47,797 nt of DNA from the IMG/VR virus record IMGVR_UViG_2571042438_000008, one strand, 5' to 3'. The notes under the pieces are model-generated. The model did not search any database, was not told the DNA's origin, and saw only the letters and a program-made list of their open reading frames with translations. How positions within the stretch are numbered: the stretch's first letter is position 1; the number at the start of each line of letters is the position of its first letter. Of this stretch, positions 12,240 to 30,036 are shown in pieces. A program made the position numbers and the translations under genes. The stretch comes from a virus (Duplodnaviria; Heunggongvirae; Uroviricota; Caudoviricetes).

Positions 12240-12245
12240 CGATTA

Positions 12246-13451: not shown

Positions 13452-13586
13452 GTGTTTGGTTATATAATTCTATAAATCTATATTTATAGAACGAGGTAAG
13501 CATAACCAACTTTTTGGCTGATGAAAAGCGTTTTATATAATTATATAAATCTATAATCATATAAGCGGGCGTTAGCCCGCTTGCAG

Positions 13587-14710: not shown

Positions 14711-14747
14711 GTCTCATCAATCGTGAATGGTGGGTTATTTATACATT

Positions 14748-14762
14748 ACCACATTTAGTGGT
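14748..14762. promoter_or_regulatory. Operator dyad ACCACATTTAGTGGT (cI-proximal)
   Basis: Perfect ACCAC-N5-GTGGT in the cI/cro-like intergenic region. Confidence 0.6.
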
Positions 14763-14829
14763 TTTCACATGGTAAGACGAGAGGTGGACCACAAATAGAA
14801 GGTTATTTTTTGTTTCGCCCATTGAAAAA

Positions 14830-14865
14830 CTCACGATATGTGGTTTTAATACCACGTATCGTGGT
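14830..14865. promoter_or_regulatory. Two adjacent operator dyads (CTCACGATATGTGGT 14830-14844; ACCACGTATCGTGGT 14851-14865), cro-like proximal
   Basis: Tandem dyads with 21-bp centre spacing just upstream of the 14885 start. Confidence 0.6.
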
Positions 14866-14884
14866 TTTAACTGGAGTTCGTTAA

Positions 14885-15379: not shown

Positions 15380-15891
15380 TGATTCTGGCCTTCTTTGGTG
15401 ATAATCACCAGATTCAATCGCAGGTGGTGCACTACCTTGATCAAACGATTAAAGGATTTGTTATCGATCATATTGATAACGATAGCAAACGTCTATCTGT
15501 AGAGCAGAAAATTGGAGGTGTGCAGCGACTGGTTGCCAGCCGTAACAGACGTGACACCGTAACAGTCGTTACGGGGATTACGGAGGTCATGGAGTACCAG
15601 ATGTTGCTGCATCGTGGAGCTGTTTTCTGCGTTCTTCCTGGTATTCTGCCAGCAATTCTTGCTCGTGGTTTTGTCCCTATTGATGAGTCGTTCTTATATG
15701 TAACCCCAAGCCGTTCCCTTCTGGATACGGAGGCGAAGCGTCGCATTTATATGATGCCGGACGAGGCATTTTCTGAATGTTACCGCCGTGAAATGAGGTT
15801 GGGTAAACGAGAAGTGTCTGTTGTTCGTGATGGCAGGTTTTTAAGAAGCCGCACGGTGAAAAGCACCAGAAATGACGGGGGCCATCAATGA
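15376..15891 (+). CDS. Hypothetical early protein
   Basis: 171-aa ORF, overlapping start/stop with neighbours. Confidence 0.4.
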   Translation: MMILAFFGDNHQIQSQVVHYLDQTIKGFVIDHIDNDSKRLSVEQKIGGVQRLVASRNRRDTVTVVTGITEVMEYQMLLHRGAVFCVLPGILPAILARGFVPIDESFLYVTPSRSLLDTEAKRRIYMMPDEAFSECYRREMRLGKREVSVVRDGRFLRSRTVKSTRNDGGHQ

Positions 15892-16121
15892 GTAGTTATG
15901 TTCGCGGTGCTGCGATGCATTGCCAGAATCCCCAATTCTGGCGCTTTCTGACCAGTAAAACAGGGAAGAACGTTTCAAACAGTTCTGAGGCCTCTGTGAT
16001 TCTGCGTGAGTTTTGCGGGATCTCATCCCGTAAAGAGCTGGCAAAGAACTACGCGGCCAGAAGCATGTATGTCCAGTTAATCAACGAGTTCAACCTCTTT
16101 ATCAATGGTAAGGGGCGCTGA
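15888..16121 (+). CDS. Hypothetical early protein
   Basis: 77-aa ORF in operon context. Confidence 0.35.
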   Translation: MSSYVRGAAMHCQNPQFWRFLTSKTGKNVSNSSEASVILREFCGISSRKELAKNYAARSMYVQLINEFNLFINGKGR

Positions 16122-16525
16122 TGAACGGACGTACACCAACGAAGAAAGAGAAACTTTATATACAAGCGGTGCTCACTCACGTGGGTTGCATAGCTTGCAT
16201 TATTGATGGCCGTGAAATTGAGAATCCAGAGCTGTGGACGGAGCTACATCACGATCCTGATTACGGCAGCGTTGATGAGAATTGCCACTTCCATAGCTTT
16301 GGGTTGTGCGCACCACATCATCGCGGTGTTGTGCCTGGTGGTGGGCGTGTGCCTCCGCATATTGCCGTTCGTCACCCTCCCCTGAGTAATTGTGCTCGCT
16401 TTGTTGAGCGTTATGGCACAGATGAATTTTTGTGTGCGCAGACGTGGGAGCTGTTGCCGCAGTCAGTTAAAGACGAAATTGGGTTTGATCTTAGTCTTGG
16501 TGAAGTACCAGGGGATACCAAATGA
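16121..16525 (+). CDS. HNH/Zn-finger nuclease-like protein (Ref/NinG-like, tentative)
   Basis: CxxC ... CHFH ... C ... HH spacing (GCIACII, ENCHFHSFGLCAPHHRG). Confidence 0.4.
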   Translation: MNGRTPTKKEKLYIQAVLTHVGCIACIIDGREIENPELWTELHHDPDYGSVDENCHFHSFGLCAPHHRGVVPGGGRVPPHIAVRHPPLSNCARFVERYGTDEFLCAQTWELLPQSVKDEIGFDLSLGEVPGDTK

Positions 16526-16854
16526 GATATACCGGCTTTCGCAAACCAGCGACAAGGAAAAGCAAATACGGCAATAAAAAAACGGTTGTCGATGATATCG
16601 CTTTTGATAGCAAAAAAGAGGCTGATTACTACTGCGAACTGAAGCTACTGAGAAAAGCTGGCCGCGTTGTGACGTTTCTTATGCAGGTGCCTTTTCATCT
16701 GCCAGGTGGTGTCGTTTATAAACTTGATTTCATGGTGTTTTATGACGATGGGACGATTGATTGTGTCGACACTAAAGGTGTGCGAACAGACGTCTACATC
16801 ATGAAGAAAAAGCAGGTAGAGGCGCTTTATCCCGTCACGATACGGGAGATCTGA
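16522..16854 (+). CDS. DUF1064-like putative endonuclease/resolvase (tentative)
   Basis: N-terminal KYGNKKT and downstream D..KG..T pattern recalled for this family. Confidence 0.35.
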   Translation: MRYTGFRKPATRKSKYGNKKTVVDDIAFDSKKEADYYCELKLLRKAGRVVTFLMQVPFHLPGGVVYKLDFMVFYDDGTIDCVDTKGVRTDVYIMKKKQVEALYPVTIREI

Positions 16855-16857
16855 ACA

Positions 16858-17235
16858 GTGAGACGCGATCTGGATAGCTTGTTTGAGCTATGGGCGCTGT
16901 GGGTGCGCAATGGCTGCAACGCCCGTAGCGGTTTCGCGTCGATGTTAGAAATGATGATGGTTACGCGCTGCCAGTTTACCGGAGGGGGCGGCGCACCAAA
17001 TGACTCACTGGAAACCAGTATAGAGGGAGCGGTGACGGCCCTCACGGTAGTTGATGAGACTGCGGCGCTGGTTGTCCGAATTGAATACGGGGCGTGGGAG
17101 ATTCGGGGCCTCGACATAAATGCACCGCATATTGATAAAGCCCACGCCCTTTCTCTTAGCCTCAGACAGTATCGCCGGAAGCTGGCAAAAGCCAGGGCGT
17201 ATGTTGTCGACTATTTGAAAAAGCGAAGAGAGTAA
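16858..17235 (+). CDS. Possible late-gene regulator (Q-like antiterminator candidate, weak)
   Basis: Last gene of the early operon, immediately upstream of cassette copy 2; N-terminal LFELWALWVRNG loosely resembles small Q proteins but lacks the Cys cluster. Confidence 0.3.
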   Translation: MRRDLDSLFELWALWVRNGCNARSGFASMLEMMMVTRCQFTGGGGAPNDSLETSIEGAVTALTVVDETAALVVRIEYGAWEIRGLDINAPHIDKAHALSLSLRQYRRKLAKARAYVVDYLKKRRE

Positions 17236-17286
17236 AAGTGTCATTTTGAGCTGTTTTGATGGTGTGTAGACATCGGGAACATCGAA

Positions 17287-17404
17287 AATCTATAAATATA
17301 TAATTATAGATTTATATAAAAAGTGCTTTACAGGTGGGAAAAAATTTCCTATGGTTATACCCGAAACCGAGCGATACCCGCCCTGGTTAAACCGGAGAAA
17401 TCTG
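17287..17404 (+). promoter_or_regulatory. Promoter-leader cassette, copy 2 (dyad AAATCTATA-N12-TATAGATTT, -35 TTTACA 17327-17332, -10 TATGGT 17350-17355, conserved leader, GGAGA RBS)
   Basis: Near-identical to copies 1 and 3 over ~88 bp; 17-bp spacer. Confidence 0.55.
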
Positions 17405-18472
17405 ATGAATAAACAAGTAATTATTTCTGACTGGATCAACAACCCTAACAGCCTGTTAAGCACTGATACTGGCTACCTATTACGCCATGTTAATGGTCGT
17501 ATGGTCAAAAGCGATGAGCACGAAACCTTTTTCTTTGTTGAAGACGATGGGCGTATCTATGAGGATGGTTACTCTTATGAAGCCCAAACTGGTTGTATCC
17601 CTGCGGAGCTGGTGGACGTAACAGAAGATCTGCGCAAAGCATGGCTTGAACAGCAGCAGCGCGGAGATGATTACGTAAACACCTATCAGGAACGCCAGAA
17701 CGCGCGTCTTGCCCGATATATTGCTCGTGCAGAAAAAGCCAGAAAAGAAGGTGCGGTAGCGCATAAGCGAGCGCATGACCTGTTGGATGTGATCCCGTTA
17801 GGCCAGCCGATTTTAGTTGACCATTATAGCGCGAAAGGCCATCGCCGCCGTTTGTCTAAAGCTGATGCGTTATTCAGAAAAGCGTTTGTTGAATGCGAAA
17901 GTAAAGCATCACACTACGAGAGCAAAGCCGCAGGTGTTGGTCGTAATGGAATTTCGTCTGATGATCCTGATGCGCTATTTAAGTTGCTTCGTAAGCTGCA
18001 AGGCTGCATGAAGTCACACGTCAAAATGAAGGCCGCAAATAAGGCCATTCGCAAATACAAAAAAGACCAAATACAGCAGCTTTCTGCATTAATCGATCTC
18101 AGGTTTACAGAAAGCGAAGCCAAAGAGTTACTGGCCGGAGATTTCTGTGGGCACATCGGATTCCCTTCATACGCACTGAGCAACAATAACGCCGAAATCA
18201 AACGACTACAGAGCCGTATTAAGGAGCTTGAATCGGTCAAGTCTGTAACAGGAGCACAGCGCGAAGAATACGACGGCTTTTCTATGGAGATAGATCCAGA
18301 GGATAACCGCATCCTGTTTTATTTCCCTGGCAAACCAGAGGCAAACATTCGTTCGCTGCTTAAATCACGCGCCTTTAAGTGGAGTCCAACCCGTAATGCA
18401 TGGGTTCGCAAGATTACTCCAAACGCCCTGGCTGATGCCCGATATCTAAAAGAATCGCTATTGAAAGCCTGA
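17405..18472 (+). CDS. Large hypothetical protein (355 aa), first gene after cassette copy 2
   Basis: Start set at ATG 17405 (GGAGA RBS); the upstream ATG 17351 lies in the conserved leader. Confidence 0.6.
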   Translation: MNKQVIISDWINNPNSLLSTDTGYLLRHVNGRMVKSDEHETFFFVEDDGRIYEDGYSYEAQTGCIPAELVDVTEDLRKAWLEQQQRGDDYVNTYQERQNARLARYIARAEKARKEGAVAHKRAHDLLDVIPLGQPILVDHYSAKGHRRRLSKADALFRKAFVECESKASHYESKAAGVGRNGISSDDPDALFKLLRKLQGCMKSHVKMKAANKAIRKYKKDQIQQLSALIDLRFTESEAKELLAGDFCGHIGFPSYALSNNNAEIKRLQSRIKELESVKSVTGAQREEYDGFSMEIDPEDNRILFYFPGKPEANIRSLLKSRAFKWSPTRNAWVRKITPNALADARYLKESLLKA

Positions 18473-18482
18473 CAGTAAGCCT

Positions 18483-18504
18483 ACGGCGGGACGTCTCCCG
18501 CCGT
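18483..18504 (+). terminator. GC-rich hairpin after 17405..18472
   Basis: CGGCGGGA-CGTC-TCCCGCCG stem-loop; weak U tract. Confidence 0.35.
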
Positions 18505-18528
18505 ATATAGAATTATATATTTATACAA

Positions 18529-18831
18529 ATGTATAAGGACGCCTCGACAATGAAACGCAAAATTATTAACCCCCAAGATGTGATTAATTTCCTGACCGAT
18601 CACCCATGTTCAAAAGTGGACGTAATCGCGGAGCACATTGGTGTGTCGCAGAACTCTATGCGTTGCAGACTGAGAAGCATGGTTGCCGAAGGACAGATAA
18701 CAACCAGGAAAATAAATGGTTGCCTGTACTACTCCGCTAAACCGGAATTGCCATTTGGCATGAATCCTAACTCCATGTTGTTTAACACCTTATTAGCCAA
18801 AGTTAAGCCGTTGAGAGGGGCTGTGGCATGA
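18529..18831 (+). CDS. Putative winged-HTH protein
   Basis: 100-aa ORF; DVIAEHIGVSQNSMRCRLRSM resembles an HTH. Confidence 0.4.
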   Translation: MYKDASTMKRKIINPQDVINFLTDHPCSKVDVIAEHIGVSQNSMRCRLRSMVAEGQITTRKINGCLYYSAKPELPFGMNPNSMLFNTLLAKVKPLRGAVA

Positions 18832-19193
18832 GCATCAAAACCCATACCGGAATAATCATTACCAATGATGGTGAGAAAAGAGTGAAGTTGCGCGAAACGC
18901 CGACAACCTGGTGTGTTGGTCCGAAAGAAACATATCGCAAGGAAGATGGCCGTCGTTGTGGGGCACCACTTTCCCGCCGTCGCCTCCTTTTGAGCACGAT
19001 AAAACCTATCGGGCAGGTTGAGCAACCAACGACTCCGGTAACGAAGATTTCAGACAAGAGTCTGGCAAACCTGATCGCTGATGCGGACAAGGTGCTGGAG
19101 CGGAACACCCCCGTTGCAGATGAGGAATGGTGGCAGGATTTCCGAGCCGCAATGCTAGAGCTTCAGGAACGTCGTCGGGAGGAGTTGAAGTGA
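18828..19193 (+). CDS. Hypothetical protein
   Basis: 121-aa ORF, coupled to neighbours. Confidence 0.4.
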   Translation: MSIKTHTGIIITNDGEKRVKLRETPTTWCVGPKETYRKEDGRRCGAPLSRRRLLLSTIKPIGQVEQPTTPVTKISDKSLANLIADADKVLERNTPVADEEWWQDFRAAMLELQERRREELK

Positions 19194-19381
19194 GCAAGAA
19201 AAATGCCGGATGGGTCAGGCCAATGAAGGCGAATAAACATCATTATTTTAATGAAGGTGAAGTAACCAGCATTTGCGGCCGTTGGATGTATTTTGGTGAT
19301 TACCGTGAGCCAGACACTTTTGAGAGTCCTGATGATTGCGTGTCTTGTCGCCGGAAATTGAACAAGGTGGCTTCTAAATGA
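19190..19381 (+). CDS. Small Cys-containing protein (possible Zn ribbon)
   Basis: GTG start overlapping the upstream stop; C..C ... C..C spacing (SICGRW ... DCVSCRRK). Confidence 0.35.
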   Translation: MSKKNAGWVRPMKANKHHYFNEGEVTSICGRWMYFGDYREPDTFESPDDCVSCRRKLNKVASK

Positions 19382-19989
19382 AAGAACGTGGTGTTGTTTT
19401 TAATGACGATATGGTTAGGGCCATCCTCGAAGGAAGGAAGACGCAGACTCGCCGACCTGTAAAAAATGTCAGGGCCGATAACTGCCTGGTTATCCGTAAA
19501 CCGACAAAGAAACGCAATGGTGTCTATACCCACGTTATGGATGCACTGGAACATGGTTTATGCCCGTTCGGTAACGTTGGTGATCGCATATGGGTCCGTG
19601 AAACATTCAACGCTTTTTGGCTGGATAACGATGTCATTCAGGAAATCAAAGATGGTGTCTCTCTGGCTTCTGAACTGTGTGATTACAAGGCTGATTACTC
19701 AGATAGTAGCAAGCCAGCTGAGGGCTGGACCCCGTCGATTCACATGCCGCGCTGGGCTTCGCGTATTTTGCTGGAAATTACCGACGTGCGTGTGGAGCGG
19801 CTGCATGACATGAGCGAGGCAGATGCTAAAGCAGAAGGCGCATCTCCGGTGACGTACAAGATTACACCGCCGGAAGCTGTTTATCGCGTTGGCTTTGGTG
19901 ATATCTGGCGCGGTATTTACGGGCAAGAGAACTGGCTATCTAACCCGTGGGTATGGGTAATTGAGTTTAAGCGTATTAAGGAAGCATAA
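19378..19989 (+). CDS. ASCH/PUA-like domain protein (tentative)
   Basis: N-terminal FNDDMVRAILEGRKTQTRRP resembles the ASCH GxKxxExR motif region. Confidence 0.35.
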   Translation: MKERGVVFNDDMVRAILEGRKTQTRRPVKNVRADNCLVIRKPTKKRNGVYTHVMDALEHGLCPFGNVGDRIWVRETFNAFWLDNDVIQEIKDGVSLASELCDYKADYSDSSKPAEGWTPSIHMPRWASRILLEITDVRVERLHDMSEADAKAEGASPVTYKITPPEAVYRVGFGDIWRGIYGQENWLSNPWVWVIEFKRIKEA

Positions 19990-19991
19990 CT

Positions 19992-20336
19992 ATGAGCAAA
20001 TCACTTAACGCACGCTGCATCCGTCGCTGGACCGTCGAATTTAAAGGCCGCTGCGACTCAAAATATAGCCCGTATTGGCGTAAGCGCGACCTGCGGGGGT
20101 ACATCCGTGAGGTTGCACTGAACACCGCGGATTGCATGGTCGAGCGTATGGCCGAGGATAATGCGATGGTAGATTTTCAGGGGGCTAATCGAGGATGGTC
20201 GCCGGAGTTCTCAGCCTGGTACCACGAACGCCGTGAACAGTATCTCAAAGAGGCGCGCGACCATCTGAACGAAGACGCCACCAATGACGAGGTTGACGAG
20301 GAGATTCAGAACGAGCTGGAGGCCTGGAATGACTAA
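19992..20336 (+). CDS. Hypothetical protein with acidic C-terminus
   Basis: 114-aa ORF. Confidence 0.4.
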   Translation: MSKSLNARCIRRWTVEFKGRCDSKYSPYWRKRDLRGYIREVALNTADCMVERMAEDNAMVDFQGANRGWSPEFSAWYHERREQYLKEARDHLNEDATNDEVDEEIQNELEAWND

Positions 20337-21045
20337 CAGCACAGCAATTAACTATCAGGCACTACGTGAGATAGCAAAACAGGCAACACAAGGCGAATGG
20401 GTCGCATTTATTTCGTCGGGTACTGGTACATATGCGGTGCATACACCCGGTGATAAACGATGTGAAGACGTTATCAAATGGACCGGCTTTGACGGACAGA
20501 AAAACGCAGAGAACAACGCTCGTTATATCGCAGCTTTCAACCCAGAAGTAGTGCAGGCGTTGCTGAATGAACGGGAAGCACAAAGCAAACGCATTGCTGA
20601 ACTGGAGGCCAGTCGTGCGGCGCTGGCGGCGGAGAATGCAGGGCTTAAGGCGATATGTGATGACCGTCGCAGGTTCATCATGAATGGGGTGCAGACGGGT
20701 TATATCAAGGTGCCAACAGCGGAAACAGCTCCAGACCTTGAGACAATTCGCATTGCTATATCACCACAAAAGCCCATTCCAGCCACCGATGCTTTCCTGG
20801 CTGAAATACGTGCGGAGGCACGCAACGAGGGGATTAACTACACCGCAAGCCGTCTTGCTGCTGCGTTCAATCACGGATTTATCAATAAGTCTTTGCGTGA
20901 AGTTTTCGACGTTACACGCATGATTTTGTCAGCGAAAGAAGAGTTGGCTAATGAACCGCACCCGATTGATGGCCTGTCCGGTGAATATGCGGAGAAATCT
21001 CTTGAGGAGTGGGCGGAACAGATTCGTAAAGGAGGCGACAAGTGA
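20332..21045 (+). CDS. Ead/Ea22-like protein (tentative)
   Basis: N-terminal QALREIAKQATQGEWVAF plus a central coiled-coil-like segment; start set at ATG 20332. Confidence 0.45.
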   Translation, partial: TNSTAINYQALREIAKQATQGEWVAFISSGTGTYAVHTPGDKRCEDVIKWTGFDGQKNAENNARYIAAFNPEVVQALLNEREAQSKRIAELEASRAALAAENAGLKAICDDRRRFIMNGVQTGYIKVPTAETAPDLETIRIAISPQKPIPATDAFLAEIRAEARNEGINYTASRLAAAFNHGFINKSLREVFDVTRMILSAKEELANEPHPIDGLSGEYAEKSLEEWAEQIRKGGDK

Positions 21046-21233
21046 GCAATTTAGCGAGGCTACGAGCAGTATTTAGATATTCAGAGCGGGTAATGAGGCA
21101 CATACAACCGAAAACATGGCAGAAATTGGATTCTGTGGGAGTTAAGTTGGAGAAGATTACTCAACTTAAGCAGTGGAATATCGGCGAATATTATGGAAGT
21201 CCTGGTCGGGATGTTCAGTTGGTAAAAAGTTGA
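21042..21233 (+). CDS. Hypothetical small protein
   Basis: 63-aa ORF. Confidence 0.3.
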   Translation: MSNLARLRAVFRYSERVMRHIQPKTWQKLDSVGVKLEKITQLKQWNIGEYYGSPGRDVQLVKS

Positions 21234-21379
21234 ACATTGCTTTTTTATTGATCGATTAACCACGATATGAAGGTTTTTTTATGGGGAAACCTTGTTTTAG
21301 GTGGTAACTGGGTGTAGTGTTTCATTTAACGTAGTAAAACTGCGTTAAGCGATTACCGCGTAATTTGTTGCTTTATGAA

Positions 21380-21410
21380 GCCCTGCCTTTTTCGGCGGGG
21401 CTTTTTTTTT
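21380..21410 (+). terminator. Strong intrinsic terminator immediately upstream of the lysis cassette
   Basis: GCCCTGCC-TTTTTC-GGCGGGGC stem-loop followed by T9. Confidence 0.8.
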
Positions 21411-21423
21411 AACGAGGATTTCA

Positions 21424-21819
21424 ATGTCAGCAGAACCAATTTCCGGTACGGCCGTTGCTGCTGGTGGCCTGATGGGTGCCAGCGTTTTTGGTATTGCAAC
21501 TGGTATTGATTACGGCGTTGTATTCGGGGCATTTGCTGGCGCTGTTTTCTATGTTGCTACAGCGGTGAATATTAGCCGTCTCAAGCTGATTGGCTATTTC
21601 TTTACATCGTTCATTGTTGGAGTGATTGGAGCGCCGTTAGTTGGCTCATTTCTTGCTAAATGGACCAGCTACAACGATCGTCCTCTGGATGCGCTTGGTG
21701 CGGTTATTGTGGCTGCATTGACCATTAAAATCCTCACGTTCGTAAACAGCCAGGATCTCGGTAGCATCTTTGGAATGCTTTCCCGCTTACGTGGAGGGGG
21801 TTCAAATGGTAAGCAGTGA
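21424..21819 (+). CDS. Holin-like membrane protein
   Basis: 131 aa, several hydrophobic segments, first gene of the lysis cluster. Confidence 0.55.
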   Translation: MSAEPISGTAVAAGGLMGASVFGIATGIDYGVVFGAFAGAVFYVATAVNISRLKLIGYFFTSFIVGVIGAPLVGSFLAKWTSYNDRPLDALGAVIVAALTIKILTFVNSQDLGSIFGMLSRLRGGGSNGKQ

Positions 21820-22102
21820 CCCGTCAGCACTGATTAATGCGGTGCTTTGCACAGTAATAGTAATGGCGCTGATGCTTTATCGACGGAAAGACTCCAGGCA
21901 TCGTCCATTTGTTTCCTTTCTGGCTTATATTTACGTCATTGTATACGCCAATGTTCCCTTCCGTTATGTGTTCGGTCTTTATCAAGAATCCCACTGGCTG
22001 GTGGTTATTGGAAATCTGATTATCTGCATCGTTGTTCTGTATTTCAGGGGCAATCTGGCGCGGATAGTTGACGCATTAGGGTTTAATCATGACCAAAGAT
22101 GA
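21806..22102 (+). CDS. Second small membrane protein (holin/antiholin candidate)
   Basis: Hydrophobic segments; start set at ATG 21806 (GGAGG RBS) inside track ORF 21770..22102. Confidence 0.45.
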   Translation: MVSSDPSALINAVLCTVIVMALMLYRRKDSRHRPFVSFLAYIYVIVYANVPFRYVFGLYQESHWLVVIGNLIICIVVLYFRGNLARIVDALGFNHDQR

Positions 22103-22631
22103 GATTTTTAACAGCGTTCTTGGAAAAGAGGGCGGCTATGTGGATCACCCTGACGACAAGGGAGGCCCAACAAAGTGGGGCATTACTCAGAACACTGCCC
22201 GTGCTCATGGATACCGTGGCGATATGCGCGATTTAACCCGCGAACAGGCACTGGAAATCCTTGAGGCTGATTACTGGTACGGACCACGCTTTGATCAGGT
22301 GGCCGCATTATCCTCTGATATTGCCGCAGAGCTGTGTGATACCGGTGTGAATATGGGGCCAACAGTGGCGTCCAAAATGCTTCAACGCTGGCTGAATGTG
22401 TTCAATCTGCGTGGGAAGCTGTATCCCGATTTGGATGCAGATGGACGAATCGGTCCACGTACCATTAATGCGCTGCGTGCTTATCTTGGGAATCGGGGAA
22501 AAGACGGCGAACGGGTGATGCTGACGTCGCTGAACTGTACGCAGGGCGAACGCTATCTGGAGCTGGCGGAGAAGCGCGAGGCGAATGAGTCGTTTGTCTA
22601 CGGCTGGATGAAAGAGCGAGTGGTGGTATGA
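22089..22631 (+). CDS. Endolysin, glycoside hydrolase family 108 type with C-terminal peptidoglycan-binding region
   Basis: N-terminal EGGYVDHPDDKGGPTKWGIT motif characteristic of GH108. Confidence 0.8.
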   Translation: MTKDEIFNSVLGKEGGYVDHPDDKGGPTKWGITQNTARAHGYRGDMRDLTREQALEILEADYWYGPRFDQVAALSSDIAAELCDTGVNMGPTVASKMLQRWLNVFNLRGKLYPDLDADGRIGPRTINALRAYLGNRGKDGERVMLTSLNCTQGERYLELAEKREANESFVYGWMKERVVV

Positions 22632-22906
22632 CTGGTTTGAAGGCCGTTTTGTCATTTATTGGCACAATTATATTGGTTGCATTCGGCGCGTTTGGTTTTG
22701 GTCGTATGAAGGGGCGAGAAAAGGCCGAAGATGAAGCTGAAAAGCAGCGCATTAATGAGAATGCAGCCGCCGTAAAAGCCACTGCGGAGCGGCGTATAGA
22801 AGTGACAAAAGAGGTGGGGAATGTACATCAGAGTGTTAACCATATGGCTGATGACGATGTTGATCGCGAGCTGCGGGAGTCGTGGAAGCGTCCCGGTGGT
22901 GGTTGA
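22628..22906 (+). CDS. i-spanin (Rz-like)
   Basis: N-terminal transmembrane segment then a charged coiled-coil-like region; follows the endolysin. Confidence 0.55.
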   Translation: MTGLKAVLSFIGTIILVAFGAFGFGRMKGREKAEDEAEKQRINENAAAVKATAERRIEVTKEVGNVHQSVNHMADDDVDRELRESWKRPGGG

Positions 22907-23030
22907 TACCGCCTGTGATTGGGTAAAGCCCATCTACCTGACTGATCACGATATCGATGTTATGGACCGCCAGACAAAGAAAGATATTCTGGCTCATAAC
23001 AGGGCATGGGAAATCAACTGCCCCAAGTAA
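22821..23030 (+). CDS. o-spanin (Rz1-like lipoprotein), partly nested in the i-spanin gene in the +1 frame
   Basis: Lipobox LIASC after a hydrophobic N-terminus; starts inside 22628..22906. Confidence 0.6.
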   Translation: MYIRVLTIWLMTMLIASCGSRGSVPVVVDTACDWVKPIYLTDHDIDVMDRQTKKDILAHNRAWEINCPK

Positions 23031-23199
23031 TATATATTTCTATAATTATATAAATATATAGTTACAACATTCTATGCGCTTTTCTCATGGGCGCACGCAT
23101 CAACCATGTTTGTCTGATATGCCGCCGCGCCCAAAAATCCTGAATTTATTGGCTGGGATTTTCGTGCGCGGCGCCACACCAGACAAACAGATCAAATAT

Positions 23200-23275
23200 G
23201 GCCCCTTAGCTCAGTGGTTAGAGCAGGCGACTCATAATCGCACGGTCATCGGTTCAAATCCGGTAGGGGCCACCA
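23200..23275 (+). tRNA. tRNA with CAU anticodon (Met or Ile2/lysidine type), 76 nt including CCA
   Basis: Cloverleaf elements readable: acceptor GGCCCCT/AGGGGCC, D-arm AGCTCAGTGGTTAGAGC, anticodon loop CTCATAA, T-arm GGTTCAAATCC, 3' CCA; close to E. coli tRNA-Ile2 as recalled. Confidence 0.85.
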
Positions 23276-23482
23276 ATTCACTCTCACACATAAAGATAAG
23301 CGCGGTGGAGTTACTTCCTTCGTGCTCATCTTTATGCGTGCCTGGTGCGCATTTCGGGCGAACGTGGGGCTAAGTTACAGGCAGGGCCTGTTATCCGCAA
23401 AGGGGTAAAAGCTGGAGCGGCACGGAACTGTAGCCGTGTTACCAAAACAGCGTTGTCGGGCGATATCCGGCACACAACAGGC

Positions 23483-23515
23483 AAGGGCATTAATCAGTCT
23501 GGTTAGTGCCCTTTT
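23483..23515 (+). terminator. Hairpin in the tRNA-distal noncoding region
   Basis: AAGGGCA ... TGCCCTT stem followed by TTTTCG. Confidence 0.35.
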
Positions 23516-23583
23516 CGTTGTGTCTGCTGTAGAGCTGGCCAGCGTTATGACTGCCGGAGATCAGCGCCGGAGGCACAACTAAC

Positions 23584-24171
23584 ATGGAGGCAATTGCATT
23601 GTTTAATCTGATTTATGCAGATCCCCCCTGGGAATACAAAGATAAGTGTAAGGATGGGAATCGTGGAGCTGGTTTTAAGTATCCAACGATGAAAGCTGAG
23701 GATATTGCTCGTATTCCTGTCTGGCAGCTTGCTAATCCTGAATCGTGTTTGTTGGCCATGTGGTGGGTTCCGACTCAGCCAGAAGAAGCGTTGCTGGTGG
23801 TGAAAGCATGGGGATTCAGGCTTATGACCATGAAGGGCTTCACATGGAACAAATGTGGTAGCCGACAACCAGATAAGCTGGTGATGGGGATGGGGCATAT
23901 GACTCGTGCAAACAGTGAAGATTGCTTGTTTGCGGTAAAAGGCAAATTGCCGACCCGCCTTGATGCGGGGATCATTCAGTCGTTTACATCGCCTCGTCTG
24001 GAGCATTCTCGGAAGCCTGATGTGGTTCGTGACAAGCTGGTAAGGCTGTTAGGTGATGTTCCTCGTATTGAGCTGTTTTCTCGCGGTGATTTACCTGATG
24101 GTTGGCATGGCTGGGGCAACCAGTGCAATGGAGGTATCCAGTTGCATGATGCTCTCTGGCAAGTGGCATAA
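23584..24171 (+). CDS. MT-A70-family N6-adenine methyltransferase
   Basis: DPPW motif (LIYADPPWEY) and family-typical N-terminal layout. Confidence 0.8.
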   Translation: MEAIALFNLIYADPPWEYKDKCKDGNRGAGFKYPTMKAEDIARIPVWQLANPESCLLAMWWVPTQPEEALLVVKAWGFRLMTMKGFTWNKCGSRQPDKLVMGMGHMTRANSEDCLFAVKGKLPTRLDAGIIQSFTSPRLEHSRKPDVVRDKLVRLLGDVPRIELFSRGDLPDGWHGWGNQCNGGIQLHDALWQVA

Positions 24172-24282
24172 AATTATATAATTATATATTTATATAAAAA
24201 GTGCTTTACAGGTGGGAAAAAATTTCCTATGGTTATACCCGAAACCGAGCGATACCCGCCCTGGTTAAACCGGAGAAATCTG
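24171..24282 (+). promoter_or_regulatory. Promoter-leader cassette, copy 3 (-35 TTTACA 24205-24210, -10 TATGGT 24228-24233, conserved leader, GGAGA RBS)
   Basis: Near-identical to copies 1 and 2. Confidence 0.55.
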
Positions 24283-24552
24283 ATGAAAGTACAAGACCGT
24301 GAAGTAGTAAAAAACCTCCTGCAATACCTGACCTCAAAAAACCTGACGGGCAGCGTTGAGTTCCGTGAAGCGTTAAAACATTTCAACGTCACTACGGTTT
24401 ATCGTTGGGAAAACAAACATTCTGAAAGACCGTATGTGGTGGATGTTTTTGCGCCTGATATTGAGTGCGGTTTTGAGCGTCATTCGTTCAAGGAGAAACA
24501 TTCTGCTGATTTTTTTTGTGAGGTTGTATGTGCGGCAGGAGATGATGAGTGA
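24283..24552 (+). CDS. Hypothetical protein (90 aa), first gene after cassette copy 3
   Basis: Start set at ATG 24283; the upstream ATG 24229 lies in the conserved leader. Confidence 0.5.
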   Translation: MKVQDREVVKNLLQYLTSKNLTGSVEFREALKHFNVTTVYRWENKHSERPYVVDVFAPDIECGFERHSFKEKHSADFFCEVVCAAGDDE

Positions 24553-24749
24553 TGCGTATTTCCTTCAAACGTGCGACTGAGCAGCAACGCAAAGAGTTCC
24601 TGGCTGATGATGTTGCGGCCGTTTATGACCTCATGAAAGAGGTTGTGGAATCAGGGAACTACACGGCGGCAAAGATGCTTAAACTGCAATTCTTGCTGGG
24701 CGACCTGAAATACAAATCCGAAGTTGTCGCCGGACGACGCGAGCATTAA
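24549..24749 (+). CDS. Hypothetical small protein
   Basis: 66-aa ORF overlapping the upstream stop. Confidence 0.4.
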   Translation: MMRISFKRATEQQRKEFLADDVAAVYDLMKEVVESGNYTAAKMLKLQFLLGDLKYKSEVVAGRREH

Positions 24750-24771
24750 ACCGTAACGATAACGAACAACG

Positions 24772-24798
24772 AGCCTCGGCAATTGCCGGGGCTTTTTT
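24772..24798 (+). terminator. Intrinsic terminator
   Basis: AGCCTCGGC-AATT-GCCGGGGCT stem-loop followed by T6. Confidence 0.8.
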
Positions 24799-24823
24799 AC
24801 ATCCAGACAAAGGAGAACATGGG

Positions 24824-25123
24824 ATGCCTTCGACAAGCACCAAAAAAGAAATGGCGGTTAGTGATGTGCTTTACGCGCTTTCGACTATATGTGACGGAGC
24901 AATGATGAGGATGAAAGTCCTCCGTGAAGCATACGGAAAAAGTCACGATGAGGCAGCTAAAGAATGCCTGAATGAGATTGTGGACTTCATTGATAACCAT
25001 CGTTCAGTTATATCGCGTCAACCGACAGAGTCGTCCATCACGATTAGCGCACCGGTTATCAATATATCAGTAACTGCGGCGTGTAAATCAGCAGCGGAAG
25101 ATGATCGTGCTTATGCCGAGTGA
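24824..25123 (+). CDS. Hypothetical protein
   Basis: 99-aa ORF preceded by AGGAGA. Confidence 0.4.
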   Translation: MPSTSTKKEMAVSDVLYALSTICDGAMMRMKVLREAYGKSHDEAAKECLNEIVDFIDNHRSVISRQPTESSITISAPVINISVTAACKSAAEDDRAYAE

Positions 25124-25313
25124 TTTGTTCTGGTTTCCGCTTCCAATAAGAGATTTGTTGGTATTTCTGGCTGGCGCTTACGTCTGGAGAAAAGCGAAAG
25201 ACACCTCGTTATCTTTGAGGTTTGTCTTAGCTATATCGGTAGGAACCGCGCTGGGTACGGCGTATCTCTTGATATTACTGGAGGTATTCATTGAAAAATG
25301 GATAGTTTCATGA
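25101..25313 (+). CDS. Small membrane protein
   Basis: Two hydrophobic segments. Confidence 0.35.
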   Translation: MIVLMPSDLFWFPLPIRDLLVFLAGAYVWRKAKDTSLSLRFVLAISVGTALGTAYLLILLEVFIEKWIVS

Positions 25314-25463
25314 ATGGTCTTGGCATTTTTCTGATGATTGTGGCCGTGTGTTTTTGTATCTCGCTGGTGGTTATTGCTGGTGTCCTGTGGCGCATCTTAG
25401 TGGCGCAGAGAGCTTTTCGGCTTAAGCGGGAGCAAATGCGCCTTGATTTCTATCGAAAGTAAC
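25311..25463 (+). CDS. Small membrane protein (50 aa; MNGLGIFLMIVAVCFCISLVVIAGVLW...)
   Basis: Hand-translated ORF below the track size cutoff; hydrophobic core then a basic tail; terminator follows. Confidence 0.3.
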
Positions 25464-25470
25464 TCTTACA

Positions 25471-25499
25471 GCCTCGCGGTGTCGCGGGGCTTTTATTTT
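25471..25499 (+). terminator. Intrinsic terminator
   Basis: GCCTCGCG-GTGT-CGCGGGGC stem-loop followed by TTTTATTTT. Confidence 0.75.
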
Positions 25500-25591
25500 C
25501 AGGTGATGTTATGGAAAAGAAAGAAGATAAACCGATTGCCATTGGTGCAGAGTCTGTTCCGTTTAAGTTTGAATGATCCCAACTGGTAACA

Positions 25592-25921
25592 ATGCGTATC
25601 AGTGAAGAGTGGGGAGAAGTACAAGCCCGTGCTCAGTATGCAAATGGCGAAAACCAGTATTTGATTCACTATCAGGCGGCTGATGGTCGTGCTACCACAG
25701 AGTGGTTCGGTGAATCGATGTTGATTGCGATGGAAGATGATCGTTATCCAGGCTGCCCTGTTTTTGCCTGTGTTGATTTGCCAGAAGGCGCGGTACTTGA
25801 AGACGACAAAGAAGAATGCTCGTCTGATGGCGAACTTGTCATTACCGGAATCGTTGATGGTAAGCCGGAATACTCTCGTATTGAGGTAAATAACGGCCGC
25901 ATCCGTTTGATCCCTGCGTAA
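25592..25921 (+). CDS. Hypothetical acidic protein
   Basis: 109-aa ORF. Confidence 0.4.
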   Translation: MRISEEWGEVQARAQYANGENQYLIHYQAADGRATTEWFGESMLIAMEDDRYPGCPVFACVDLPEGAVLEDDKEECSSDGELVITGIVDGKPEYSRIEVNNGRIRLIPA

Positions 25922-26155
25922 CGCATTACAGCAGCTCTTGTGCTTATCAGGGGCTGCGATAATGCGCAAACCAAAGCTGCCTCATTAACTCCAGCTCGCT
26001 GTGGAGTTAATGCTGGTGGCTTTTTTATTACTGGAAGGTGGGCGACCGCCGTCAGTTGCGACCTGACGACAGTCATTCATACCCACAGGGTGCCGTGGAT
26101 ACAAACCGAGGCCCACTTGCTTGCACAAGCGAGGGGATTTTAGCGGATAAACGGC

Positions 26156-26779
26156 ATGACAAAACATCTTAATGTGGTTTCTTTACCACTTTCTGTGTTG
26201 ATTGGTTATGAAAAGAACGCTCGCACACACTCCGTGGAGCAGGTAGATCAGATTGTTGCCAGCATACAGGAGTACGGATGGACTAATCCGATCCTGATAG
26301 ACGAGAACAACGTTGTAATTGCTGGTCATGGTCGAATTGCTGCGGCCACTCAGTTGGGGATGGATGAGGTTCCCTGCATTGTTCTGGAAGGGCTAACGGA
26401 GAATCAGAAGAAGGCATATCGTCTGGCCGACAACCGTATTCCGCTGAATGCTGGTTGGGATGAAGAGTTGTTAAGCGCGGAGCTTGCAGATCTTGCGGCC
26501 GATGATTTTGCTCTGGACTCAATTGGTTTTACTCAGCGCGAACTGGATAACTTATTGAGTGCGGCGGTCTACGATGACACAGAGGGTATGGATATCCCAT
26601 TTGAGAAGGATGAGGCCAAATCAGGCGTAAAAGTTCAGTACCTGTCATTTGGAGGTCATAAAATCCCGGCAACGGATGAGGAAGCGGATCGTTTTGACTG
26701 CGCGGTGTCTCGTTATGTTGATGATAATGGCAGCTATATCGGATTTGTATCCGCATTGCTGGCTGGGGAGGTGTGCTGA
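26156..26779 (+). CDS. ParB N-terminal (ParB/Srx nuclease-like) domain protein, paralog 1
   Basis: LIDENNVVIAGHGRIAAATQLGMDEVPCIVL; paralogous to 29446..30036. Confidence 0.7.
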   Translation: MTKHLNVVSLPLSVLIGYEKNARTHSVEQVDQIVASIQEYGWTNPILIDENNVVIAGHGRIAAATQLGMDEVPCIVLEGLTENQKKAYRLADNRIPLNAGWDEELLSAELADLAADDFALDSIGFTQRELDNLLSAAVYDDTEGMDIPFEKDEAKSGVKVQYLSFGGHKIPATDEEADRFDCAVSRYVDDNGSYIGFVSALLAGEVC

Positions 26780-28152
26780 TGCTTCACCTCAATTACGACA
26801 TAACGCACCTACGCGGCGCGGAATATAACCCGCGTTTTATCGGTGAGGATGATCTTGCGAGGCTGGCGGAAAGCGTCAGGGAGCTGGGGCTTGTGAAGCC
26901 ATTGATAGTGCGCGGCGATTTGCTGGTGGCGGGACACCAAAGGACGAAGGCGCTACGTAAGTTGGGAATAACGCGTGCTGCGGTGTATGTGTTGCCCTGT
27001 GAAACGACGGTATACGACGAAGTACGGTTTAACCAACTGCATAACGGAACGGATTTTGATAGCGGAGATGAGCGTTGCAGGGTGTCCGGTCTGGAAGATA
27101 AGCATGGTTTTGTTCAGGTATCGGCAAGCCAGATCTCAGGCAATATGCGCGCGAAAATGGCATATGTTCGAAAGAACATAGCGGAACTGGTTATCAAGTA
27201 TGGTCCGTGGGGTGGTTGTGTTGCTACTCAGTCTGGCGAGGTTATTCACTGTGCTCAGTATGCATTAGCAGCGAAGATGACGCGCACACCGCTAACGGTG
27301 TTTGTGATCCCTGATGTTGAGAAGGAAAAATACCAAAGTTATCTGAATAAAACTTATGGTGTATTTGAGTATTCTCATCTGGAGAAAACAACATACATCC
27401 AGACGTATGCGCAGCTTATGCGGTTGCGTAATGGTGGCAGCCTGAAATCAAACCTGTATGAGTCGTTGATCCTCCCGATCATTGCCAAGACGCCAAGAGG
27501 AATTGATTTTGGTTCGGGGCAGGGAGACTACGCGCGAATGCTCAGGGCAAAGGGATATAACCTGCATGATCTCGAGCTTTTCCGCCGTAAGGGCGCTGGA
27601 AACACTCTGGATAGGACCGCAACAAACCGGATGATTGATACGCTGGTGGACGACTTAAAAACGCGAGGGCGTTACGACTACGTGATTTGCGATAGCGTTT
27701 TGAACTCGGTCGATAGTGTCGAGGCTGAATGGTCCGTTCTGACGGTTCTGAAAGGCTTGTGTAAAGCTGGTGGGTCAATATTCTTTTCTGGCCGTAGCCG
27801 TGGAGAGCTGGAAACCGTCCTGAAACAAACACAAGCGGCGAGTTCCAAAAGCCGGCTTTATTTTATTGATCATAACGGTTTTACCGCGTTGTACCGGAAG
27901 GGGCACTGGTTTTACCAGAAGTTTCACTCTGATGATGAAGTGAAGCAGTTGTGTCGTGTACATGGTTTCAGGATTAAGCGGTCAATATTCAACTGTAAGA
28001 GCTGGTATTTGCACGTCATTAACGATGATTCCCTTAGTTGGGCGAGTCTGGAGAAAGCTGTTCGTTTTGAGTTTGAGTTGCCGTTGCCTGGTGGTTCAAC
28101 AATCGGACGATCTGATGATGTGCTGGCGGCTTTCCGGCCGTTGATTAAGTAG
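26773..28152 (+). CDS. ParB N-terminal domain fused to a putative SAM-dependent methyltransferase domain
   Basis: N-terminal LVKPLIVRGDLLVAGHQRTKALRKLG (ParB-like); glycine-rich IDFGSGQGDYARML (motif I-like); no DPPY/NPPY seen. Confidence 0.55.
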   Translation: MLMLHLNYDITHLRGAEYNPRFIGEDDLARLAESVRELGLVKPLIVRGDLLVAGHQRTKALRKLGITRAAVYVLPCETTVYDEVRFNQLHNGTDFDSGDERCRVSGLEDKHGFVQVSASQISGNMRAKMAYVRKNIAELVIKYGPWGGCVATQSGEVIHCAQYALAAKMTRTPLTVFVIPDVEKEKYQSYLNKTYGVFEYSHLEKTTYIQTYAQLMRLRNGGSLKSNLYESLILPIIAKTPRGIDFGSGQGDYARMLRAKGYNLHDLELFRRKGAGNTLDRTATNRMIDTLVDDLKTRGRYDYVICDSVLNSVDSVEAEWSVLTVLKGLCKAGGSIFFSGRSRGELETVLKQTQAASSKSRLYFIDHNGFTALYRKGHWFYQKFHSDDEVKQLCRVHGFRIKRSIFNCKSWYLHVINDDSLSWASLEKAVRFEFELPLPGGSTIGRSDDVLAAFRPLIK

Positions 28153-28168
28153 TGTGTAGGAGGCGCTG

Positions 28169-28888
28169 GTGGCTGACAGAATTGAGATAAAGATGGATTT
28201 TTCTTCTCAGGATATTCAACGACAACTCCAGCGCCTTGAAGAACGCGAATTGCCGTTCGCAATGGCGCTTGCGGCAACCAGAACGGCAAAGGCTTCTCAG
28301 GCTGCGATTAAGAATGAAATTAATCGGGTATTTGACAGGCCCACGCCGTGGATTCAGAACTCTACTTACGTTTTGGCCGCAAAGAAGAGTGATCCTACAG
28401 CCATTGTGTATGCTCGTGAATGGGGAGGAACGCCAGCCCCTGTAACGTTGACTCCGCAAATCGAAGGTGGACAACGACAGTACAAACGCTCAGAAGGGGC
28501 GCTAAGGGCTGGTGGATATTTGCCTAACGGCTGGCAGCTTGCTCCTGGTCCCGGTGCAAAGCTGGACAAATACGGGAATATTTCGCGGGGGCAATTACAG
28601 CAGGTCTTATCTGGCCTAAGAGTTCAGCGAGATGCGCATCAAAATCGCCGTCAGGGCAAGCCTACGGAGTTTTTTGTTGTTCGACCTGGTACAAGTAACC
28701 CGCTTCAACCAGGCGTCTGGCAGCGCGTTGGGCGGCGTCCTACGTTGATCCTTACGTTTATCCAGCAACCTAACTATTCGCAGCGTCTTGATTGGCATGG
28801 CGTGGCGCTGCGTGCTGGTGAGGATGCGTTTGCTGATGAAGTCACAAAGGCTATTGATGACATTCTTTCTAAGACTTTCTCTCGTTAA
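28169..28888 (+). CDS. Hypothetical protein
   Basis: 239-aa ORF after the ParB-methyltransferase fusion. Confidence 0.45.
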   Translation: MADRIEIKMDFSSQDIQRQLQRLEERELPFAMALAATRTAKASQAAIKNEINRVFDRPTPWIQNSTYVLAAKKSDPTAIVYAREWGGTPAPVTLTPQIEGGQRQYKRSEGALRAGGYLPNGWQLAPGPGAKLDKYGNISRGQLQQVLSGLRVQRDAHQNRRQGKPTEFFVVRPGTSNPLQPGVWQRVGRRPTLILTFIQQPNYSQRLDWHGVALRAGEDAFADEVTKAIDDILSKTFSR

Positions 28889-29445
28889 TCATCGTGTGGT
28901 TGATGGTGTTGTTATGCAGAGTGTATTCACTGTGTTCTGTAGCGTCGCTCGCTGGCTGTCTGTGGGTGGGCACGAGCATCGTTTCATCGTCCGGCAGAAT
29001 TGGGTCCTTCTGGCCAAAAGCGTTGGATGCGGGTCATTCGAACCCCGATGTTCGGCTAGCTAAACGTGAAAAAAGTTAGGTTAAAAGTTGCGGTAAAAGA
29101 AATTTACCCATCTCATTGAAAAATATTGGGAAAACGTGATTTTTTGCTGTGCTTGTGATGGTGAAAAGAAAGTAGAGAATTTTCTTTTAGATCATCAAGA
29201 TACGCGCAGATCTTTAACCAATGCAAGGCTGTTTTGATAAAAATCTTTATAAATCATGCAAATACATCCAATCTTTTAACCAAAACACCATCGGAAGATC
29301 CTTTTTACTTATAAAAACTTAATAAAACCAGATAATTATGCTGGTTTGTGTGATTTTTTATGAGTAAAAAGATCGTCATTTTTCTCTTTTAGTATCAATA
29401 AGTTAAACATTTTTCTTTAACCTGTTGTGTTATGGCGGTTAAAAA

Positions 29446-30036
29446 ATGGCTCTAAAAATCGAATATTTACCAGTCGGTAAGCTGCTCAGATATGCCAAAA
29501 ATTCACGGACTCATTCAGATGAGCAAGTTGAACAGTTGGTGAACAGTATCCGTGAGTTCGGTTTCACTAATCCTGTGCTGATCGATGAAAAGAATGAACT
29601 GATTGCGGGGCATGGGCGGCTTGCAGCAGCCGAAATTCTGGAAATGGATAAAGTTCCGGCGATTCGGTTGAGTAACCTTTCTGAAAAACAGAAGAAGGCG
29701 TACAGGATTGCAGATAACAAGCTGGCCTTAAATGCTGGCTGGGATATGCAGCTTCTGGCCGAAGAAGTCAAAGAGTTAATGGATGATGATTTTGATATTG
29801 ATCTGCTTGGGTTTAATGATGCAGAGCTTGACGAAATGTTAAGCGATGAACAGCCGCAGGAAGAAGACGATAATTCTTCCCCTGTTGTTCAAATTAAGTA
29901 CCTGGCTATTGATAAAGAACGTATTCCCGCGACGGATATGGAAATTGCATTGTTGCTGGATGTTTATCGTCAGTACCACGACGCGCATGAAACGCATGAG
30001 GGATTTGTTCAGTATCTTGCTAATGGTTGCAAGTAA
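29446..30036 (+). CDS. ParB N-terminal domain protein, paralog 2, immediately upstream of terminase
   Basis: LIDEKNELIAGHGRLAAAEILEMDKVPAIRL; clearly alignable with paralog 1 over the N-terminal ~110 aa by eye. Confidence 0.7.
   Translation: MALKIEYLPVGKLLRYAKNSRTHSDEQVEQLVNSIREFGFTNPVLIDEKNELIAGHGRLAAAEILEMDKVPAIRLSNLSEKQKKAYRIADNKLALNAGWDMQLLAEEVKELMDDDFDIDLLGFNDAELDEMLSDEQPQEEDDNSSPVVQIKYLAIDKERIPATDMEIALLLDVYRQYHDAHETHEGFVQYLANGCK

Follow-up and report, generated by a model that had tools for sequence, protein, structure and literature searches.

Do the six small open reading frames (ORFs; O1 to O6) that lie between a repeated cassette and the ParB-like and packaging genes of a tailed phage form a set of independently terminated morons, or do they belong to a late operon that needs antitermination to reach the structural genes? 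The string is found in the viral record IMGVR_UViG_2571042438_000008 (Caudoviricetes), a stretch of 47,797 nucleotides (nt) that was analyzed at its full length and is referred to as the window, and both possibilities had been raised in an earlier note made from the sequence alone. The best-supported description, as read from sequence and comparison, is that the string is neither a set of independent morons nor a demonstrated antitermination-dependent operon. We give about an even chance to an explanation in which a conserved promoter-to-terminator unit is followed by accessory genes that would depend on read-through within a terminator-rich zone, the whole region being a mosaic of accessory DNA set between the lysis/methylase and the ParB/packaging modules.

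The first 251 bases of the window are an exact repeat of the last 251 (1-251 and 47547-47797), so that the window represents a circularly permuted complete genome of ~47.5 kilobases (kb) that was opened with an overlap. The queried region is 100% identical to a 48-kb plasmid of Escherichia coli strain 222, the twin that was annotated by the Prokaryotic Genome Annotation Pipeline (PGAP). The comparison set consisted of 14 relatives spanning the region from the cassette to the ParB gene, and the cassette was found in all of them.

A conserved, predicted promoter-to-terminator unit

Cassette copy 3 (24169-24295) heads the string, as the earlier note had stated, and is one of three copies in the window with 85-100% identity among them, the others being located at 8334-8460 and 17291-17417 (the copies of relative L019 are at 17613, 26735 and 35015). 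Each of the three copies sits before a gene start with a Shine-Dalgarno (SD) sequence. The gene 3' of every cassette is a 126-amino acid (aa) gene, a DUF3560 gene or O1, with the exception of the E. coli plasmid L006, where an unrelated 86-aa gene takes the place of O1. In copy 3, the stop codon of the MT-A70 gene (24169-24171) abuts the repeat array that precedes the predicted promoter (Table 1). The spacer of this promoter contains the palindrome GGAAA-N3-TTTCC (24215-24227), exact copies of which occur in all three cassettes and at one place elsewhere (6353). Among 36 distinct cassette sequences the -10 element appears as TATGGT, TAAGGT, TAATGT, TAAGAT or TATTCT, with TAnnnT always kept. 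As the -35 and -10 elements are evidently constrained in three copies, the cassettes are not incidental. Sequence and comparison together show copy 3 to be a putative sigma-70 promoter that would transcribe O1-O2, with a transcription start probably near 24240. The fold of the leader is not significant (folding free energy, dG, -9.9; z-score, z, -1.8).

The Salmonella plasmid pAR-0407-1 carries three cassette copies in the same three places with arrays at corresponding positions, and its copies are closer to one another than to their E. coli counterparts, which would indicate either concerted evolution or co-evolution with a binding factor. A hybrid cassette that joins a promoter of the E. coli type to a leader of the Salmonella type was observed in L006. 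Concerted evolution and this hybrid suggest that the cassettes also serve as recombination joints between modules.

O1 and O2 are followed directly by a terminator in all 14 relatives, and this terminator derives from two unrelated sequences. T1 itself is present in 13 of the 14 complete relatives while the Salmonella relative has a non-homologous terminator there (GCCCCnnnACCCATCGGGGC followed by a T-run), and both terminator types were found after O2 in L006 and in the incomplete locus L025. The two strong intrinsic terminators proposed at 24772-24798 and 25471-25499 were both recovered, as T1 and T2 (dG -18.8 and -16.6; z -5.9 and -5.0 respectively), and no shuffled sequence folded as well as either of them; the stronger T3 (25976-26026) and the hairpin T4 had been missed. 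Diverged O2 homologues occur after O1 in the Salmonella, L006 and L027 lineages, and L006 has diverged alleles of O1-O2. Over seven relatives the changes in O2 amount to ten synonymous and two non-synonymous in total. The comparison thus shows a predicted, self-contained unit of cassette promoter, O1, O2 and T1 that is conserved across E. coli and Salmonella lineages. The promoter of copy 3 would transcribe the translationally coupled O1 and O2, the transcript would end at T1, and T1 would thereby keep cassette transcription out of the downstream genes.

The products of this unit belong to PHROG families of unknown function, as do those of O3 and O6, whereas O4 and O5 belong to none. A longer O1 frame of 107 aa from 24229 is conserved cassette DNA and non-coding. 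The close family of O1 is narrow; 33 remote cluster representatives were found, and in the longer of these remote relatives O1 forms the N-terminal domain of proteins of 160-256 aa without a Pfam match. In a lambdoid prophage, one O1 homologue comes immediately after the repressor gene. The AlphaFold2 model of O1 is confident (predicted local distance difference test, pLDDT, 91.4) with the order a-a-b-b-b-a of helices and strands, and no PDB sequence match or significant PDB structural neighbour of the model was found. Weak likenesses of the model to double-stranded-RNA-binding, PH and AP2 domains were not accepted.

Genes downstream of T1

The T-run of T1 and the start codon of O3 are separated by 23 nt, SD included, and the T-run of T2 and the start codon of O6 by 10 nt. 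These gaps leave no room for a promoter of O3-O5 or of O6, and a consensus scan found no promoter-like site downstream of 24233 in the stretch. O3-O5 and O6 hence depend on transcription that passes T1 and T2. Both sets of genes have ribosome-binding sites but no promoter room, with O6 being dead in this copy, and their products would be made only by the small fraction of polymerases leaking through T1 and T2, or by terminator-resistant transcription from upstream during lytic growth. By analogy, the latter route would be how the homologues of O6 are transcribed in Q-dependent lambdoid prophages.

O3, O4 and O5 are absent from the Salmonella plasmid, in which the order is cassette, O1', O2', terminator, O6', T3, T4 and ParB. 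The comparison shows these three genes as a lineage-specific insert that behaves like added extra DNA. The O3 family is confined to this phage-plasmid family and has C-terminal variants of 99 and 151 aa; the non-synonymous changes in O3 are at least as many as the synonymous ones. O4 is annotated in no record seen. Its frame is open in all relatives, with an in-frame deletion of 30 nt in L005, and relatives with the 151-aa O3 have an alternative GTG start for O4 that is preceded by an SD of its own, so that O4 behaves as a gene though it is unannotated. Two membrane peptides had been expected among the six products, and O4 and O5 were indeed the only hydrophobic ones (Kyte-Doolittle 19-residue maxima of 2.17 and 3.12 respectively). 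No family match with E < 0.003 was found for O5 in Pfam, PHROGs or NCBIfam, and none for O4 in Pfam or PHROGs. A role in superinfection exclusion or another envelope-level function for O4 and O5 would be a guess by analogy with gp15 of phage HK97. T2, which follows O5, co-occurs with the 5' part of the O6 module.

All six ORFs lie on the + strand with sizes near those first proposed (O1 has 89 aa and O2 has 65 aa); the sixth, which had been read as a small gene of its own, is the remnant of a longer one. PGAP marks an internal stop in O6 of the identical plasmid and the relatives read leucine at this codon, which makes O6 a pseudogene in this copy. Its match to phrog_1935 begins at profile position 28. 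The family is widespread in enterobacterial prophages; in Q-encoding lambdoid ones its members separate the lysis cassette from the cos/terminase region, and these prophages also have terminators directly before the holin gene. In other relatives of the element, the O6 slot holds a DUF2513 gene, a fusion to a tail-fibre-assembly fragment, or a deletion. The model of O6 is poor (pLDDT 48) without a fold match, and the family has no PDB sequence match.

None of O1-O6 has a Pfam or NCBIfam match, nor a PADLOC-DB 2.0 match at E <= 0.1, which leaves the exclusion or anti-defence role suggested for the string as conjecture. Among the alternative products, the DUF2513 protein has no PADLOC match and the 151-aa O3 variant has one weak match to PtuB (E 0.014, 12.8 bits). 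Pfam and NCBIfam likewise yielded nothing meaningful for these two.

Table 1. Features annotated from cassette copy 3 to the ParB gene
Feature	Position	Strand	Description
Repeat array	24171-24202		Four phased 8-base pair (bp) AT-only repeats, unit about TTATATAA, directly 5' of the -35 element
Cassette promoter (predicted)	24205-24233	+	Sigma-70-type; -35 TTTACA, 17-nt spacer, -10 TATGGT; 9/12 matches
5' untranslated region (predicted)	24240-24282	+	Conserved leader of ~43 nt; SD GGAG 24272-24275; identical in three copies
O1	24283-24552	+	89 aa; soluble alpha/beta protein (model)
O2	24552-24749	+	65 aa; phrog_6621; start overlaps O1 stop (ATGA)
T1	24771-24800	+	10-bp GC-rich stem (24771-24794), AATT loop, six T (24795-24800); dG -18.8 kcal/mol, z -5.9
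O3	24824-25123	+	99 aa; phrog_8319; SD AAGGAG 24811-24816
O4	25101-25313	+	70 aa; membrane peptide; overlaps O3 end; stop overlaps O5 start (ATGA)
O5	25310-25462	+	50 aa; PGAP-annotated; one N-terminal transmembrane helix, basic C-terminal tail, net charge +6
T2	25470-25500	+	9-bp stem (25470-25491), GUGU loop, TTTTATTTT; dG -16.6, z -5.0
O6	25511-25921	+	Remnant of a 136-aa gene; in-frame TGA 25574-25576; distal 109-aa ORF 25592-25921
T3	25976-26026	+	Long-stem terminator, then six T; dG -26.1, z -5.5; strongest terminator
ParB leader	26030-26155	+	Highly conserved, non-coding; ends in hairpin T4 (26112-26137, then TTTT to 26141)

Terminator cluster and conserved leaders

A total of six sites with a hairpin followed by a T-run (dG <= -14) were found on the + strand at 21200-26200, compared to 0.67 +/- 0.79 (maximum 3) in 60 dinucleotide shuffles. 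The early region of 6.3 kb (14885-21199) contains none, and the structural region of 21 kb contains two, both inside the ORFs of TerL and the tape-measure protein. Five of the strong terminators are intergenic (21380, 23485, 24773, 25471 and 25976) and lie between the early and the structural genes. This spread is the layout of a late region that needs a terminator-resistant polymerase. With such a dense run, late transcription would either cross the terminators or restart after T3; it would cross those before the holin gene and after the tRNA gene as well as T1, T2 and T3 by some antitermination mechanism, or else start anew downstream of them.

The terminator before the holin gene (21377-21404; dG -20.5) ends 10 nt before the holin start codon. 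In the Salmonella relative the stem has changed in a compensatory manner, and the 57 nt upstream of the terminator are almost identical between the lineages. Rfam matched no known element in the two conserved leaders (21234-21424 and 25960-26155), and no qut- or nut-like element was recognised. A sub-threshold, full-length Rfam match to GcvB was found in the holin leader (21252-21409; 34.3 bits compared to a gathering score of 42, E 4e-6 for the stretch searched), including a GU-rich stretch that aligns to the single-stranded GU-rich region of GcvB. The holin leader may therefore be a phage small RNA gene or a 6S-like leader instead of an antitermination element. In the region 23000-30000 Rfam found only the tRNA; isrJ-like matches at T1 and T2 were rejected as being merely the terminators. 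A motif search among the holin leader, the ParB leader, the tRNA flank, the cos-like region and the cassette gave nothing above the shuffles.

Directly upstream of the holin leader lies a 63-aa ORF (21042-21233; phrog_9594) which has a counterpart with 63% identity in the same place of the Salmonella relative and sits where Q does in lambdoid phages. It is unannotated in the E. coli and Salmonella plasmid records, and its homologues in the phage collection were found in three Yersinia phages only.

T3 was observed in all 14 relatives, weakened in L004, and it closes the region. Its stem has 17 pairs with 95% of the cells paired, and the E. coli and Salmonella lineages differ in it by two compensatory and five one-sided changes. 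T4 is present in all 14 relatives and is weak (dG -13.4, z -2.0). The ParB leader that ends in T4 is almost fully identical across lineages over most of its length whereas the flanking genes differ by ~20% at the protein level (ParB is 80% identical). Its segment 26030-26105 is rich in short palindromes (GGCGACCGCC and GTCAG-N7-CTGAC). This segment could be a late promoter or activator site, or another protein-binding site. A search of IMG/VR with the conserved leader returned close relatives only, and the scan of representative genomes for ParB relatives returned unrelated taxa only.

Arrays shared with the partition locus

The 8-bp arrays of the cassette recur at 8339, 12752, 13460, 13533, 17288, 18497 and 23030, with three to four units at 12752-12785, 13460-13566, 18497-18538 and 23022-23071 as well as in the three cassettes. 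They flank parA and are found at five further intergenic positions; they precede a 93-aa winged-helix gene and the tRNA gene, and mark all three cassettes in both lineages. The promoter of parA on the opposite strand aligns with the cassette, consisting of an array, AAAnnGCTTTnCA, an A-rich palindromic spacer and the -10 element TATGCT. The parA product has 222 aa, and the gene is followed by an 82-aa gene (12491-12739, - strand). From its position, its size and our reading of its sequence, the 82-aa product might be a ParG-type centromere-binding protein of the ribbon-helix-helix class that binds the arrays. The shared arrays and the likeness to the parA promoter suggest that one DNA-binding protein, perhaps the 82-aa product, acts on partition and on several dispersed promoters. 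Since the cassette and parA promoters share a layout (array, -35, A-rich palindromic spacer and TATGnT), the three cassette units are probably controlled through the arrays by the small protein encoded after parA, and they would probably be expressed in the plasmid-prophage state or early in infection.

Partition proteins are known to double as regulators. ParG acts at the TP228 parFG operator, and omega of pSM19035 is likewise both a partition protein and a transcription regulator. The Sop partition system of the phage-plasmid N15 reportedly also regulates phage genes (Ravin et al. 2008, as listed in PMC11652158), and this case would be the closest precedent for the proposed control by arrays. 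As in these systems, phased short repeats lie 5' of a small parA, and the arrays return at scattered promoters of the phage-plasmid, that of cassette copy 3 among them. The arrangement here differs in that the repeat unit (about TTATATAA) is unlike the known partition operator boxes, and that the candidate binder has no detectable family. Of the features of a type Ib partition locus, the arrays and the 222-aa ParA are present, and the gene following parA encodes a product without a family match.

Weighing the alternatives

Among known frames, the moron concept and the lambda late operon come closest to this layout. Lambdoid morons include gene 15 of HK97 and the lambda genes bor and lom. A moron is, by the definition in PMC3594210 (citing Juhala et al. 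2000), a transcription unit that stands on its own and has been added to the genome of a phage, and HK97 gp15 is an exclusion protein, a small inner-membrane-type peptide (PMC3594210). The string resembles lambdoid morons as its small genes have no known virion or replication role, lie between conserved modules and are bounded by intrinsic terminators (T1 -18.8, T2 -16.6 and T3 -26.1, all with z <= -5). In addition, O3-O5 and the O6 slot vary among close relatives, and O4 and O5 resemble gp15 in type. Unlike morons, only O1-O2 has a predicted promoter, and this promoter is present in three copies and related to that of parA; the unit is conserved across lineages, and O3-O6 are without promoters. 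It is quite improbable, in our judgement, that each terminated block was acquired horizontally and is expressed from the prophage, where it would help the host by exclusion, defence or anti-defence. In favour of this reading, the blocks are closed by terminators, O3-O5 are missing in the Salmonella relative, other relatives carry a DUF2513 gene or a tail-fibre-assembly fusion in place of O6, the GC content dips slightly (40-49% at 24150-25350) and the two membrane peptides are like the HK97 exclusion protein (PMC3594210). However, a promoter is found in the first block only, this block is conserved family core and not extra DNA, the GC dip is mild, the products have no PADLOC, Pfam or NCBIfam matches, and O6 is inactivated here. 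The moron proposal accounts for part of the string, with its terminators and the extra DNA of O3-O5, and not for the whole.

The lambda late operon consists of PR', tR' and Q antitermination. Like it, the element has a strong terminator just upstream of its lysis genes and further terminators in a late region that is read from a single strand, and O6 homologues hold the same position between lysis and terminase genes in prophages encoding Q (PF06530, PF03589, PF06323). In contrast to lambda, the element is kept as a plasmid-prophage that encodes RepA and ParA and has an immunity RNA locus of the c4/isrK type, and no homologue of Q or N was found. A single late operon with processive antitermination, in which the polymerase is modified at or before the holin leader and reads through all five terminators, so that the cassette promoter is a minor, internal one, is attractive for the terminator cluster at 21.3-26.0 kb, for the strong terminator 10 nt before the holin start as in Q-dependent prophages, for the near-identical 57-nt leader segment adjoining a terminator with compensatory changes, for the synteny of the O6 family in Q-dependent operons and for the single strand that holds all genes from 14885 on. 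We nevertheless regard it as unlikely, as neither an antiterminator homologue nor a late promoter was identified, the holin leader and the terminator beside it may together make up a small RNA gene (the sub-threshold GcvB-like match), and the evident constraint on the cassette -35 and -10 elements argues against an incidental promoter. The proposal that the string needs antitermination fits another part of it, through the terminator cluster, the terminator before the holin start and the synteny of O6, and loses ground as no Q or N was found with Pfam, PHROGs or NCBIfam or in the PGAP annotation and as T2 is present in only 6 of the 14 relatives.

A graded operon without antitermination also has little probability in our view. 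T1 and T2 would then act as leaky attenuators and stabilisers of 3' ends, giving much O1-O2, little O3-O5 and less O6, while T3 would end the operon and the ParB and late genes would be transcribed from an activator-dependent promoter within 26030-26155. The downstream genes with SD and without promoters fit this arrangement, as do the strength and conservation of T3, which exceed those of the other terminators, the near-invariant stretch after T3 and a conserved -10-like hexamer just upstream of it (GATAAT in E. coli, TGTAAT in Salmonella). Yet the interval from T3 to the ParB start codon showed no recognisable sigma-70 promoter, no late activator was identified, and the terminator directly before the holin gene is left unexplained. 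Similarly low odds are given to a combination in which the cassettes are the regulon of a partition binding protein acting through the arrays and the terminator zone is crossed by antitermination without a Q or N homologue, possibly by means of a cis-acting RNA in the leader before the holin gene. If true, the element would have a switch, linked to plasmid partition, between accessory expression in lysogeny and late transcription.

The explanation we favour, a conserved cassette-to-T1 unit followed by read-through-dependent accessory genes, has several observations against it. Its promoter, its regulator and the efficiency of its terminators are predictions from sequence. The 82-aa protein has no match in Pfam, NCBIfam or PDB sequences. 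The deletion fusions of O1-O2 in L003, L017 and L030 and the larger deletion in L026 show that the region tolerates damage. The non-synonymous changes in O3, O4 and O5 are about equal to or above the synonymous ones, with very few substitutions, which fits weak constraint, and T2 with its limited occurrence is dispensable. The search of ten early ORFs (14885-21233) in PHROGs, Pfam and NCBIfam gave no Q, N or other antiterminator, PGAP names none among the remaining genes of the identical plasmid, and the two conserved leaders have no motif in common.

The element and its surroundings

The PGAP-annotated twin encodes RepA, ParA, an XRE-type repressor and a RelE/ParE toxin-antitoxin pair, and its virion genes comprise a lambda-like head module and a P2-like contractile tail. 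Together with Rfam matches to c4 antisense RNA, isrK and ryfA, this gene content indicates a temperate myovirus that is kept as a plasmid. Essentially all genes from 14885 onward lie on the + strand. Membership in the pSLy3 phage-plasmid group was rejected, as pSLy3 is described as a subgroup of the SSU5 supergroup, which is another family.

Three Rfam matches exceed the gathering score (11413-11599 and 11971-12267): c4 antisense RNA and isrK, both on the - strand, and ryfA, on the + strand. The c4/isrK locus adjoins an ORF6N/Rha-type antirepressor-like gene (9976-11175), and this grouping would suggest a P1-type secondary immunity locus. Three palindromes of the form ACCAC-N6-GTGGT (14713-14870) were observed in the gap that separates the XRE-type repressor gene (14054-14710, - strand) from the divergently read first rightward gene (14885), and they are likely to be the operators of the main immunity switch. 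Two candidate controls of the cassette from these loci were rejected. Pairing of c4 antisense RNA with the leader of the cassette is not specific (duplex energy -35.2 compared to a genome-wide mean of -32.8 +/- 7.7), and for a CI-like repressor the operators lie at 14740-14870 with none seen in the cassette sequence.

Upstream of the string, a tRNA gene with a CAT anticodon (23200-23275) is called tRNA-Met by ARAGORN and tRNA-Ile by PGAP in the identical plasmid; ~200 nt of non-coding sequence separate this gene from a strong terminator (23483-23513). Downstream, the string was said to lead into ParB-like and terminase genes. ParB is indeed next; the terminase gene (30593) does not follow directly, being separated from the string by two ParB-domain genes, a 239-aa gene and an AT-rich, cos-like region. 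This last region (about 29100-29446) is non-coding with ~30% GC and repeated GATCTTTAACC-like motifs, and lies between the 239-aa gene and a third ParB-domain gene, the small terminase gene and TerL. By our reading of the sequence it is a likely candidate for the cos or packaging site.

Distribution and significance

Of the 217 places that match the queried 2.1-kb region, 212 are on plasmids, and the full-length matches listed are plasmids of ~46-51 kb. Relatives that form virions have been deposited as the Yersinia phages vB_YpM_39, 41 and 44, with ~97% identity over the region, and as Escherichia phage vB_EcoM-613R2. We know of no study on the regulation of this phage-plasmid family. The analysis gave no sign of a new kind of system, the layout being like that of lambdoid late regions and morons already known. 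Its yield is a map of transcription units comprising a repeated, predicted promoter that is probably linked to partition, a conserved terminator that would act as an insulator, and a group of orphan genes, for a family that is found in 74 of 5,426 complete E. coli genomes, nearly always as a ~48-kb plasmid, and that includes the reference strain ATCC 25922 among its carriers.

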